A DNA stretch of 64,000 bases from Shigella phage SGF2: the sequence record MN148435; one strand, 5' to 3'. Of the stretch, positions 43,818 to 54,299 are shown piece after piece (the first letter of the stretch is position 1; each line of letters opens with the position of its first letter). Made by a program: the position numbers and the translations under genes. The notes beneath the pieces are model-generated. The model was not told the origin of the DNA. It saw only the letters and a program-made list of their open reading frames with translations, and did no database searches.

Positions 43818-45848
43818 TTAACCTCTATTCAATGAACATTTAGGAGAATTACAATAAACTTGATTCATAGAACCAAGCGTACAACTTTCAGCATCGCGCC
43901 ACGGAATCTGCTTAAAACACTCTGAGCAGTAGCCGAGGGTTGACCACATGGCTTTGGTGAAGTCAGTGCTTCGGTTTCCGTCGAAGCTGACAACAGTTTT
44001 GCGGAGAGCTGTTCGTGATTCAGGAAACACACCTGCTTTCTCAGCAGGTTCCTCCTTTTTTGGCTTAGTTGAGATTGCAAAAATACTGTTGCTACGTTTC
44101 TCAACATAAGCATCAACAACATCCTCCAGAGTGATGCCTGTCTGTTTCGCTGAGGAAGGTAATACAGTCATACGACCAATCATATCTTCAGTTACACGTA
44201 AAGCAAATTCAGGACGACGGGCGTTTGTTGTATCTGTTGCTTTAATCCAGACATAACCATCTTTGATCGTAGCATTAGATACTTTCTTCTTTACATCTAC
44301 AGCGCAGACTTTACAGATATCTTCACCACGAAGACGACTAAGTTCATCATCGAACTCGTTCTCTGTTTTAACTTCACCGCAGATTTCACAAACACCAATA
44401 GGAGTTTCCTCCTCTTCTTCATCTTTAGGTTTAGTCAAACCTTCCAGACATTCAGGGTGCCAGTAGCACTGATATGCGAAGACTGCTTTAGGTGCATCCT
44501 TCCAATCAATGTGTTTGTCACAACCACCGCAATCACCATGAGAGTGTGCTTCCCAGAATTTACGAGTGATAGTAACGCCATTCTTATTGACGAAACTATC
44601 ATTCATGTCAAAAGGGATATCATCATCGAAGTCAGCGGTAGTAGACTCAGGCTCCTTTTTCTCCAGAGATGGGTCAACAAAACGACCTGCTGTGATCACT
44701 AAACGAACCATAGCATTAACTTCGGAGATGCAGGATACTGTCCCACGGTAAACAATTTTAGGGTCTTTCAGGGCATCCTGATAAGCCTTAATGTCTACGT
44801 TATGAACATCACCTTCGATATACTCTTGAGACTTCTCATCGTAGATATAACCAATCATCTTACCACGAGAAGGAACAGCACCAGCTGTTGCATAAGGAAC
44901 AAACTCATGTGGTGTGATTTCCACAGTCATATCGCGGCGAATGTCAATGTTTCGATCGCTTGCGATTTTGTTTTGACTTACCACTGCGTTTCTTCGACGA
45001 ACGTCTGCCGCTGTCACTCCCGGCTTCGTGTCGTAAGGATTGCTTGTACTGCTTTTTGAGGAACTTTGATAATTGCTTTGGCTGTAGTTGTTCGAGTAGT
45101 AATTGCCCCAACGATTGATTACCGTAAAAACCGGAAGCTCGTGGGCGACCTCTTCAACTAGAGTCATACTGTTGTTTGACATGTCAAAGATATACTCTGT
45201 ACCAACTTTACATTCAAAGTGCTCATCAATACGGTTCTTGTGAGACTTAGAACGCTTCAGAATCCACATCAACATGTCTTCTTCAGAAGCACCAAACCAA
45301 TCTCTGTTACAACGTGCGAGATGGAATGGACGCTCTTCGTTACGGATGATATGAAGACGGTTGTCAGAAGCATCATGCCAGATTAAGGTGAAAGCACCAT
45401 CCAGCTTTTGAATAGTCTCTGCTGCACCAATAGTGTTAATAGAGTGGCAGATGTTCTCACTGTCTACCTCGAAGTTTTTGCTGTCAGGTAACAGATCTTG
45501 GTCCATCAAGGTTCCGTTATGAACCAGAGTGATGTTACCATGTTGGAAAGGATGGGCGTTCTTGGCGTTAACTGCACCTTTCGTTGCATGACGGCTATGA
45601 CCAACAATCCATGAAGGTGCTACAGTGTAAGCTGTTTCACCAGTGGTGTGCTTCTTGTACTCATCTTGAAGGATGAATGCGAAAGAAGGAAGGGCTTCTT
45701 TATAGGTGAAGACTTCCTTAGTGCTCTTACGCTGACCAAAGATACCAGAGGAATGTTGTCCTCGGAACACTCCAGCATAAAAGAGTTGGTTGAATACGTC
45801 TAAATCAGTGCTTGACAGATTACCGCCAGCTAATACGATGCCACAAAT
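43818..45848 (-). CDS. class-II (Ntn) glutamine amidotransferase-like protein with C-terminal Cys-rich Zn-ribbon region
   Basis: reading frame extends upstream of track start to I-CGIVLAGGNLSS... (Ntn Cys nucleophile pattern); AGGTGG RBS; no in-frame ATG after a TAG, so ATT start or readthrough implied; C-terminal CxxC clusters. Confidence 0.55.
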   Translation of the reverse strand: MCGIVLAGGNLSSTDLDVFNQLFYAGVFRGQHSSGIFGQRKSTKEVFTYKEALPSFAFILQDEYKKHTTGETAYTVAPSWIVGHSRHATKGAVNAKNAHPFQHGNITLVHNGTLMDQDLLPDSKNFEVDSENICHSINTIGAAETIQKLDGAFTLIWHDASDNRLHIIRNEERPFHLARCNRDWFGASEEDMLMWILKRSKSHKNRIDEHFECKVGTEYIFDMSNNSMTLVEEVAHELPVFTVINRWGNYYSNNYSQSNYQSSSKSSTSNPYDTKPGVTAADVRRRNAVVSQNKIASDRNIDIRRDMTVEITPHEFVPYATAGAVPSRGKMIGYIYDEKSQEYIEGDVHNVDIKAYQDALKDPKIVYRGTVSCISEVNAMVRLVITAGRFVDPSLEKKEPESTTADFDDDIPFDMNDSFVNKNGVTITRKFWEAHSHGDCGGCDKHIDWKDAPKAVFAYQCYWHPECLEGLTKPKDEEEEETPIGVCEICGEVKTENEFDDELSRLRGEDICKVCAVDVKKKVSNATIKDGYVWIKATDTTNARRPEFALRVTEDMIGRMTVLPSSAKQTGITLEDVVDAYVEKRSNSIFAISTKPKKEEPAEKAGVFPESRTALRKTVVSFDGNRSTDFTKAMWSTLGYCSECFKQIPWRDAESCTLGSMNQVYCNSPKCSLNRG

Positions 45849-45927
45849 TTTCTAATCCACCTGAAGGGTAAACCCTTTCATCTAATTAACCTTTAAATTG
45901 TGCCCCTTTATCAGAGGCACCCATTGA

Positions 45928-47031
45928 TTACAGCGCTTGCTCTAACTGATTTTCCAGATGATCTGGAATGTACCCTGTGATATTGCTATCACTGTGACCT
46001 GACTCACGCAGTAAGTCAAAAATAGCACGGATACGTTGCTCTGGTGCAGATCGTACAGTAGATAGATCAGTTGTACGAAGCATAACCAGAATCTCTTGGT
46101 ACAAGTTGTTAGCGTTCCCTCGGACATATCCAAGGAATCCGTAGAAGTCTGAGATATGACGTAGATCAACAAGAACTTCTCCGTTGGAGTTGGTTCGACG
46201 TAAACGAATACGACCAGACTGTTCTACTTCATGAGAACGACAATACAAAACATCACGGGCCATACAATAACCTGAATGCAAATCCGATTCATCCAGATTG
46301 TAATCCAGAGGAAGGTAAGGAAGCATTGGGGCAAATCGTACAGTATTTAAATGCTCAATAAACTGATCATTGCTCATCTCTGCGTTATCTAAAGCCAGCT
46401 TCTTCAACATCAAGAAGCGGTTAACCAGATTGAGAAGTTGACCACGTTTCCACTTAGGCTCACTGATACGGAACTCGATCGAACCGTATTGGGCAAGTGG
46501 CAGAAGATTCAGGGATGTATACTTATCCCATGAACGAACCAGACGGTTGAAGAATTCTTCATCGTCGTAGTTAAATGCGTCAGAGGCATTCATTACCTGT
46601 GCTTGTACCACTGCGAAAGCAGGGCAGAAGTTGCTACGGTAACGATGATAGCCTGAACACTTGAACAACATCTTTTCATAGAAGGTCCAAGCGAGAATGG
46701 TTTTCTTGAGGATATTACTATCAGCATCCCTCATATCCATATGAACGTGAGTAGAGCAACGCCAAGTCCCCTCGGCGTGCGATTCAGCTACTGCTTCACT
46801 CAGGTTGTTGATAGCGTCTAACAACTCCTGTCCGTTGTAAGGTCGTGAACATACCATTTCACAGCCATTACGCAGGGAACCATCCTCTGTACAATCCCAC
46901 ATATCTGCTTCGATATGGTCGGAGCCTTCGAGTTCTAGTTCGATACCGACACCGCACTGAAGTGCAATTGAACTATGCGCCTCAGTTAAACGACCTTCTC
47001 GATATCCAAAAGTTTGCGCTACAGTTGTCAT
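45928..47031 (-). CDS. glutamine-synthetase-like amidoligase (carboxylate-amine ligase fold)
   Basis: VGIELELEG...EDGSLRNGCEMV...GTWRCSTHVHMD resembles GS-like amidoligase motifs. Confidence 0.5.
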   Translation of the reverse strand: MTTVAQTFGYREGRLTEAHSSIALQCGVGIELELEGSDHIEADMWDCTEDGSLRNGCEMVCSRPYNGQELLDAINNLSEAVAESHAEGTWRCSTHVHMDMRDADSNILKKTILAWTFYEKMLFKCSGYHRYRSNFCPAFAVVQAQVMNASDAFNYDDEEFFNRLVRSWDKYTSLNLLPLAQYGSIEFRISEPKWKRGQLLNLVNRFLMLKKLALDNAEMSNDQFIEHLNTVRFAPMLPYLPLDYNLDESDLHSGYCMARDVLYCRSHEVEQSGRIRLRRTNSNGEVLVDLRHISDFYGFLGYVRGNANNLYQEILVMLRTTDLSTVRSAPEQRIRAIFDLLRESGHSDSNITGYIPDHLENQLEQAL

Positions 47032-54223: not shown

Positions 54224-54299
54224 TGGTGCACCCTACAGGACTCGAACCTGTAACCAACGACTTAGAAGGTCGCTGCTCTGTCCATTGAGCTAAGGGTGC
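54224..54299 (-). tRNA. tRNA-Arg (anticodon UCU), CCA encoded
   Basis: minus-strand GCACCCTTAGCTCAATGGACAGAGCAGCGACCTTCTAAGTCGTTGGTTACAGGTTCGAGTCCTGTAGGGTGCACCA folds as cloverleaf: 7-bp acceptor, D-arm GCTC/GAGC, anticodon loop CTTCTAA, T-loop TTCGAGT. Confidence 0.85.

Follow-up and report, generated by a model that had tools for sequence, protein, structure and literature searches.

A glutamine amidotransferase gene of Shigella phage SGF2 and its probable AUU start behind a hairpin and a Shine-Dalgarno sequence

The amidotransferase gene and its start region

The locus described here lies in a 64,000-nucleotide (nt) stretch of DNA from Shigella phage SGF2 (record MN148435), hereafter the window, and comprises the minus-strand gene of a glutamine amidotransferase together with the leader that precedes it (Table 1). 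The extent given to the gene equals that of the coding sequences (CDS) phi32_83 of phiEco32 and SU10_085 of SU10, and its first codon is an ATT, followed at once by the codon of the nucleophile, Cys1. Between the in-frame TAG upstream and the Cys codon there is no ATG, GTG or TTG in frame; the first canonical start is a GTG inside the gene, which GGAG abuts directly, a poor spacing for a Shine-Dalgarno (SD) sequence. Upstream of the ATT, a small open reading frame (ORF) in frame with the enzyme encloses a hairpin and an SD sequence; it runs on the minus strand from ATG 45881-45879 through AAA GGG TTT ACC CTT CAG GTG GAT to TAG 45854-45852, and has AAAGG 8 nt 5' of its own ATG. In a crude ORF scan of the window, no gene but the amidotransferase combined a long start-less 5' extension with an SD-preceded near-cognate codon.

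This anatomy had been read in the same way in the initial annotation of the DNA: the series ATG...TAG AAA ATT TGT with AGGTGG 8 nt 5' of the ATT is present as described, the remark that initiation at the GTG 26 codons downstream would delete the nucleophile is correct, and the hairpin AAGGG-TTTA-CCCTT reported within the nine-codon ORF is not only present but belongs to a family-wide set of hairpins.

Table 1. Positions of the amidotransferase gene, its start region and its surroundings in the window
Feature	Position	Strand	Remarks
Glutamine amidotransferase gene, phiEco32 gp83 homologue	43818..45848	-	ATT to TAA, 2031 nt, 676 codons, 76 kDa
ATT, proposed initiation codon (AUU)	45846..45848	-	abuts the Cys1 codon; in-frame TAG two codons 5'
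TGT, codon of the Cys1 nucleophile	45843..45845	-	followed by GGC ATC GTA (CGIV...)
Spacer ATTAGAAA	45849..45856	-	8 nt, with in-frame TAG 45854-45852, then AAA 45851-45849
SD sequence AGGTGG	45857..45862	-	8 nt before ATT; anti-SD duplex -5.9 kcal/mol
Hairpin AAGGG(45877-73)-UUUA-CCCUU(45868-64)	45864..45877	-	3' end at -16 relative to the ATT, two bases from the SD sequence
Mini-ORF MKGFTLQVD	45852..45881	-	9 codons, encloses hairpin and SD sequence; stop 3 nt before ATT
Invariant 52-nt block of Kuravirus/Suseptimavirus-type phages	45844..45895	-	from TAAAGGTTAATTAG through mini-ORF, hairpin, SD sequence, TAG and ATT into the Cys codon
GTG, first canonical in-frame start	45768..45770	-	26 codons after ATT; its use would drop Cys1 and 25 more residues
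Class-II (Ntn) glutaminase domain	45066..45845	-	~260 aa; Pfam GATase_6/7; profile matches to GlmS and PurF structures
Upstream gene, Amidoligase_2 family, phiEco32 gp84 homologue	45928..47031	-	
Intergenic 8-bp hairpin, terminator-like	45900..45920	-	weak U tract after the stem; 3' of the amidoligase stop TAA 45930-45928
tRNA-Arg, anticodon TCT	54224-54299	-	sole tRNA in the window

As for the encoded enzyme, its N-terminal domain, covering the first ~250 residues, scores above the Pfam cut-offs for class-II glutamine amidotransferases (GATase_6, 55 bits with a cut-off of 27; GATase_7, 27.4 bits with a cut-off of 25). A profile built from 16 members of the family matched E. coli GlmS (1.3e-18) and PurF (5.7e-11) in the PDB and aligned the family Cys to residue 1 of mature GlmS; the profile was required for this result, a single-sequence phmmer search of the PDB with the glutaminase domain giving no match. 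Cys1-Gly2 is invariant in the family alignments A1 and A3, R28 is nearly invariant, and N110, G111 and D128 are invariant in alignment A1; R28, N110-G111 and D128 align with the glutamine-site residues of GlmS (Arg26, Asn98-Gly99 and Asp123, respectively), with HNG and (V)DSE motifs. In addition, tblastn alignments to phages start at residue 1 down to 30% identity, and the majority of the homologues in a large protein database start with MCG. By these matches, the protein is a class-II, N-terminal nucleophile (Ntn), glutamine amidotransferase, with the nucleophilic Cys encoded right after the ATT. Catalysis by Ntn amidotransferases involves the free amino group of Cys1, and for this reason a product starting at the GTG, whose N-terminus would read (M)FRGQHSSGIFGQR, would be dead as a glutaminase.

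Regarding the start codon, the comparative evidence argues strongly that translation begins at AUU 45848-45846, which very probably is the true initiation site. The 52-nt block that includes the ATT is 100% identical in 95 GenBank records of Escherichia and Shigella phages, and it is unchanged in 13 distinct aligned sequences, while these genomes diverge by ~15-20% in the coding DNA on either side. Over the first 27 codons, Kuravirus- and Suseptimavirus-type phages have 9-13 synonymous versus 3-5 non-synonymous codon differences, and by this pattern purifying selection acts on the protein sequence encoded ahead of the first GTG. The comparison with orthologous phage genes that the initial annotation had proposed thus finds TAG and ATT invariant in the 95 coliphage records, with the ATT also present in Aeromonas phage BUCT695 and in a third lineage, L182, described below; ATT initiation, one of the options it had listed, gains strong comparative support and agrees with the annotations of phiEco32 and SU10.

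In the proposed mechanism, fMet-tRNA would read the AUU as a near-cognate start, as it does in the E. coli genes infC and pcnB; the Met would then be stripped by deformylase and methionine aminopeptidase, freeing the amino group of Cys1, as expected from the enzyme family. Since the codon after the AUU must be Cys, Met removal is obligatory for activity, and the N-terminal tryptic peptide expected of the AUU product after this step is CGIVLAGGNLSSTDLDVFNQLFYAGVFR.

Among the deposited phages, the records of phiEco32 (EU330206, NC_010324; gp83 ABY52884.1 / YP_001671828.1) and SU10 start the CDS at the same ATT, and a 501-nt query made of the leader and the 5' coding region is 97.6% identical to phiEco32; GenBank already gives gp83 its ATT start, and how AUU initiates translation is textbook knowledge. 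In other records the CDS begins further on: from the GTG in SR02 (OQ870566), where the gene is named purF/amidophosphoribosyltransferase, from an internal ATG in ECBP2 (NC_018859) and SU7 (MZ342906), 10 codons in for BUCT695 (OL799327), and likewise from downstream starts in KpnP_VR7901 (OM103162) and O4 (KU535860). Where counted, these annotated starts lie 9 to 36 codons past the Cys codon, and Cys1 is lost. Gene callers limited to ATG, GTG and TTG thereby remove the catalytic Cys in many deposited phage genomes, and the enzyme then looks inactive or partial; the obligatory Cys1 offers a simple rule for mending such truncated records. At the protein level, the amidotransferase was detected with 9 peptides in SU10-infected cells (PMC4281155). 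The gene numbering in the proteomics table of that paper appears to be shifted with respect to the locus tags.

The ATT-TGT junction (45844-45848, minus strand) also contains an out-of-frame TTG two bases into the ATT, which opens a short ORF, TTG TGG CAT CGT ATT AGC TGG CGG TAA; as this ORF is not kept in ECBP2-type phages, it is probably a mere competing site.

Leaders and start codons across the family

The Cys1 codon was located by profile in loci from IMG/VR, metagenomes, genomes and GenBank phages, with a second, independently fetched sample centred on Zobellviridae. In 199 distinct leaders, the codon before Cys1 is ATG in 154, ATT in 22, ATC in 7, TTG in 10 and GTG in 6, and never ATA or CTG; no canonical start occurs between the nearest in-frame upstream stop and the ATT/ATC in 33 of 34 such sequences. 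After clustering at 70% protein identity, ATT/ATC is found in 19/108 clusters, the nearest relative being mostly an ATG sequence, and a neighbour-joining tree requires ~23 changes of start-codon state. Cultured examples outside the kuraviruses are Aeromonas phage BUCT695 (ATT), Klebsiella phage KpnP_VR7901 (ATT) and Pseudomonas phage O4 (ATC). The SD sequences are somewhat stronger in ATT/ATC leaders (-8.5 versus -7.4 kcal/mol, p=0.01), with GGAGG in 7/19 versus 12/101 (p=0.013).

A further difference concerns the secondary structure. With a hairpin defined as perfect, of at least 5 bp, with a loop of 3-7 and a 3' end at -18..-12 from the start codon, 19/29 ATT/ATC leaders qualify, versus 7/154 for ATG (Fisher p=2.8e-13) and 1/16 for GTG/TTG (p=1.2e-4); in shuffled versions of the ATT/ATC leaders, on average 1.0 and never more than 4 qualified. 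The 3' ends peak sharply at -16, -15 and -14 in the ATT/ATC leaders and are scattered in the ATG ones. The contrast holds for both gene arrangements, tightly coupled (4/6 ATT/ATC versus 0/67 ATG) and spaced (13/18 versus 6/37), and in the second sample alone (2/5 versus 1/48, p=0.02), where the folding energy of the region -45..-10 is -6.3 versus -2.7 kcal/mol (p=0.007). The stems vary, including AAGGG/CCCTT, CCGTA/TACGG, CCTAG/CTAGG, AATGC/GCATT, CCTGA/TCAGG, AAAGC/GCTTT and AACCT/AGGTT, and despite this variety the part from the SD sequence to the ATT is of a few similar types.

As for the leader of the window, its relatives outside the coliphages preserve the same plan. Aeromonas phage BUCT695, whose protein is only ~52% identical, shares this leader except for two substitutions, each of which changes an amino acid of the mini-ORF; one falls in the hairpin loop (UUAA, with the stem kept) and the other in the SD sequence, which becomes AGGCGG, a change at a position that already mismatched the consensus. 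The mini-ORF of this phage keeps its frame and TAG and lacks an SD sequence of its own. L182, the third lineage, is a phage-like contig from a Herbiconiux assembly; its leader is homologous, with another frame 5' of the hairpin, the double stop TAG TAA before the ATT, and a stem with an additional complementary A-U pair (AAGGGA-UUUA-UCCCUU). The spacer GGATTAG(A/T)AAATT is common to the window, BUCT695, L182, L084 and L119, and the ATT itself is retained in BUCT695 and L182 at 52-60% protein identity. MAFFT aligned the three leader types ungapped and misplaced the L182 stem. Scans of IMG/VR with exact leader patterns returned kuravirus contigs only, and a looser pattern of SD sequence, spacer and ATT returned unrelated coding sequences and one locus already known. 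An alternative, SD-sequestering hairpin GGUUUACC/GGUGGAUU, given by the minimum-free-energy fold, was rejected, being broken by both BUCT695 substitutions.

A small helix-turn-helix-like ORF lies directly 5' of the amidotransferase in three ATT lineages, BUCT695 (L007), L182 and L118; in BUCT695 it occupies ~1370-1470, in a gap without annotated CDS, and in L182 it spans 1-225, reading ...GLSQLKVATIVGCSQMHISKLERGK... and continuing through the hairpin to the TAG. Two pairs of loci are alike in the gene and not in the leader: L143 (ATT) and L149 (ATG) encode proteins that are 98% identical, and their sequences are unrelated exactly upstream of the start codon; likewise, the genes of L036 and L133, one with ATT and the other with ATG, are near-identical, and their similarity ends sharply at the start codon. 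This pattern looks like an exchange of leader cassettes by recombination at the gene boundary.

The association with ATT/ATC, together with the covariation of the stem, suggests that the hairpin is probably a functional part of the initiation region. Most likely, it would help the 30S subunit to hold the weak start codon through the proofreading by initiation factor 3 (IF3), for which three ways are conceivable: the hairpin may stack on the helix between SD and anti-SD sequences, insulate that helix, or keep the SD sequence free. In E. coli reporters, AUU gives six- to eight-fold less expression than AUG, and the translation of AUU mRNA is selectively depressed by IF3 (PMC3592434, PMC5499595); an AUU would hold the synthesis of the enzyme low and sensitive to the status of the initiation factors. 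Throttling or regulation is a conceivable purpose of the hairpin-SD-AUU arrangement, proposed here with some reserve. That the translation apparatus might be a target of modification by the neighbouring RimK-like ATP-grasp and amidoligase enzymes, with the weak start sensing their own pathway, is much less likely. On a broader scale, it is tentatively proposed that AUU/AUC initiation is a selectively maintained and recurrent trait of this family, present in ~15% of the distinct leaders and at least three phage families, with a dedicated hairpin of 5-7 bp, lacking in the ATG and GUG/UUG relatives, that abuts a strong SD sequence 7-9 nt before the start.

AUU and AUC make up 0.004-0.024% of the annotated bacterial starts (PMC5499595), and here they occur in roughly one amidotransferase leader in seven, with a positionally fixed hairpin, so that the family offers a compact natural test system for near-cognate starts. 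If the hairpin does aid the 30S subunit in accepting near-cognate starts that differ at the third position against IF3 proofreading, non-canonical initiation would gain a new natural cis-element. The hairpin-SD-AUU module is a more interesting and testable lead than the ATT start of a single locus. No literature on ATT starts in phage amidotransferases or on such a module was found in a search of incomplete coverage, which is weak evidence of novelty.

Alternative explanations and gene neighbourhood

Taken as a whole, initiation at the AUU, removal of the Met and a hairpin-SD module ahead of the start are the best explanation of the locus, with a probability of about 0.85. Several points weigh against it. 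In the window, the SD sequence is of only moderate strength (-5.9 kcal/mol), the hairpin is weak, and the leader folds no better than shuffled sequence (z -0.3 to -1.7). Regarding the family, the position window of the hairpin was narrowed after the data had been seen (an earlier and broader test gave 17/24 versus 14/106, p=4.6e-8); the ATT/ATC leaders belong to few related types, so that the events are not all independent; non-canonical starts are recognisable only where residue 1 is obligatory, which makes the enrichment partly a matter of ascertainment; and the ratio of ATT/ATC to GTG/TTG, 34:5 in the first sample, is reversed to 5:10 in the second, so the excess depends on the subfamily and is not uniform. 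The invariance of 52 nt exceeds what a ribosome-binding site and a 5-bp hairpin need, implying that an overlapping further function is possible. E. coli infC has no hairpin abutting its SD sequence, unlike the amidotransferase leader, hence the module is no general requirement for AUU starts. Finally, the supplements of the SU10 paper, which contain shotgun peptides, include no N-terminal peptide of the amidotransferase, and the expected mass of 63.8 kDa listed there (PMC4281155) agrees with neither of the two candidate products, 76.1 kDa from the ATT and 73.5 kDa from the GTG.

Two alternatives accept the AUU and assign another role to the leader. According to the first, which is rather unlikely to be the main route, the ribosome would reach the AUU by termination and reinitiation after the mini-ORF: the hairpin would be melted, translation would stop at the UAG and restart 3 nt on, and the hairpin would matter less, the whole being a natural 'bicistronic design' of the thrS-infC kind. 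The geometry of stop, 3 nt and AUU is identical to that of infC, whose junction doubled expression in reporters relative to a single-cistron AUU (PMC3592434), and an ORF ends at the TAG in all three leader lineages, namely the mini-ORF in the kuraviruses and BUCT695 and the long helix-turn-helix ORF in L182; some reinitiation is plausible, because the mini-ORF ends 3 nt before the AUU as thrS does before infC. However, the mini-ORF of BUCT695 has no SD sequence, and close coupling to the gene upstream (0-5 nt or overlap) is the norm of the family, found in 77/108 ATG members versus 6/20 non-kuravirus ATT/ATC members. Coupling to an upstream ORF as a feature specific to ATT/ATC was rejected, near ORF ends being normal for ATG members too; it is the hairpin, rather than the end of an ORF, that sets the ATT/ATC leaders apart.

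The second alternative, also doubtful, is that the hairpin and the 52-nt block serve mainly a purpose other than recruiting ribosomes, as an operator bound by a phage protein that recognises RNA or DNA, as an element for RNA processing or stability in the long early transcript, or as a mobile cassette, the link with ATT/ATC being one of cassette descent. All 52 nt are invariant, beyond the needs of a ribosome-binding site; proteins of only 40-55% identity can have a leader in common, and L143/L149 switch leader and codon exactly at the start; small helix-turn-helix genes stand just upstream in BUCT695, L182 and L118; and PMC2839356 describes mobile promoter-stem-loop cassettes in T4-type phages. 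On the other side, the stem sequence varies from leader to leader, which leaves no common sequence-specific operator, and the position of the hairpin is fixed to the start codon (-16..-14) and not to the upstream gene. No sigma70-type site was found on the minus strand, and the phiEco32 gp36 element TAATGTATA, with its AATGTA, has no match near the leader and a window-wide count equal to chance; likewise, the best scores of the leader in a scan of Rfam 15 were 16.7 and 14.2 bits versus gathering scores of 44 and 70.

The remaining alternatives dispute the AUU start itself. The initial annotation had listed a read-through of the stop and a sequencing error beside ATT initiation, and neither fares well. 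For the former, ribosomes starting at the mini-ORF ATG would read through the UAG and make a 12-residue propeptide, MKGFTLQVD-X-KI, whose autocatalytic removal would expose Cys1. The frame shared with the enzyme, the AAAGG 8 nt before the ATG, the conservation of frame and TAG in BUCT695 and the tolerance of Ntn enzymes for cleavable propeptides (11 residues in B. subtilis PurF) are all compatible with this, but it is highly improbable: TAG is an ordinary stop here, ending 9/79 crude ORFs of the window, and there is no suppressor tRNA, the only tRNA of the window being Arg-TCT. Moreover, both substitutions in the BUCT695 mini-ORF, which lacks an SD sequence, change the peptide, and one alters the loop while the stem stays; L182 has another frame upstream of its hairpin and two stops before the ATT, and the other ATT/ATC lineages have stops at many positions, 33/34 without an in-frame canonical start upstream.

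Even less credible is a true start at the GTG (codon 27), or at an internal ATG in the sister genera, with Cys1 absent and the upstream stretch untranslated. Six phages, SR02, ECBP2, SU7, BUCT695, KpnP_VR7901 and O4, are annotated in this manner; against it stand the excess of synonymous differences in codons 1-27 between genera, the (near) invariance of Cys1-Gly2 and R28 in a family whose tblastn alignments begin at residue 1, the poor spacing of the GGAG that abuts the GTG, and a product unable to hydrolyse glutamine. As for a sequencing or assembly error, or a decaying pseudogene, nothing beyond the oddity itself speaks for it, and it is excluded in practice by the identity of the 52-nt block in 95 independently sequenced phages, the intact frame of 676 codons and the detection of the SU10 protein.

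Regarding the wider context, the region matches Escherichia phage SR02 at 99.8% identity, and phiEco32 and ~80 other Kuravirus-type coliphages at 97-98%; by this identity the window is from a phiEco32-like coliphage (Kuravirus). The amidotransferase gene sits in the amidoligase/ATP-grasp cluster of phiEco32-type phages: its upstream neighbours encode the Amidoligase_2 protein and a 'phiEco32-like COOH.NH2 ligase', its downstream neighbours a DUF7195 protein and an ATP-grasp protein similar to RimK and D-Ala-D-Ala ligases. In SU10, distant sigma70 promoters serve the long early operon to which the gene belongs (PMC4281155). No Pfam model matches the C-terminal 415 residues of the enzyme (43821-45065, minus strand), whose four CxxC pairs (residues 439, 486, 511 and 640) suggest zinc-ribbon-like modules; relatives end in a similar CxxC...CxxC region.

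The intergenic hairpin at 45900..45920 is labelled 'terminator' in GenBank record MK373770, and its stem has compensatory changes between genera (GGGTGCC..GGGGCAC versus GGGCGC..GGGCGC). After the intergenic hairpin, the motif TTTAAATGTAA(A/T) occurs 5' of the Cys codon in L005, L006, L007, L009, L022 and L024, which include several Grimontviridae and related phages; within it stands AATGTA, which forms the core of the gp36 promoter element of phiEco32, and its counterpart in the window is TTTAAAGGTTAAT. On the plus strand, a sigma70-like match, TTGACA-16-TACGAT (45812-45839), would give rise to an antisense RNA that covers the start region; as a promoter it was rejected, since its -35 element is not kept in ECBP2-type phages and the count of such sites is as in shuffled sequences.

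Comparison with known systems

The closest counterparts, phiEco32 gp83 and SU10_085, are orthologues with the identical 52-nt block and the same annotated ATT, and do not differ at this locus. Among cellular enzymes, GlmS, PurF and AsnB share with the phage protein the glutaminase fold family, the Cys1 after the start codon and the conserved Arg, Asn-Gly and Asp; their genes start with ATG-TGY in E. coli. The phage amidotransferase differs from them in its unrelated C-terminal part of 415 residues and in its setting within an amidoligase/ATP-grasp cluster. B. subtilis PurF is also an Ntn amidotransferase in which Cys1 is exposed by the loss of N-terminal residues; its propeptide is read in an open frame from an ATG, whereas here a stop codon intervenes. 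Synthetic bicistronic designs of ribosome-binding sites and natural cases of coupling resemble this leader in having a short ORF that contains the next SD sequence and ends beside the next start; as a difference, the leader ORF here is a putative one, and it is not specific to the ATT/ATC members of the family.

As for initiation at AUU, E. coli infC and pcnB likewise combine this codon with a good SD sequence upstream, and the likeness to infC extends to the stop codon, exactly 3 nt 5' in both: UAA GGU AUU, with the SD sequence GGAGGA, in infC and UAG AAA AUU here. The AUU of infC is conserved phylogenetically, as is the ATT of the amidotransferase in 95 records. The two systems differ in that the infC codon has an established logic, autoregulation by IF3, and in that the AUU of the amidotransferases recurs in many lineages among relatives that use ATG. 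If this reading is true, the phage amidotransferases would be the second gene family, after infC, with a phylogenetically recurrent AUU start.

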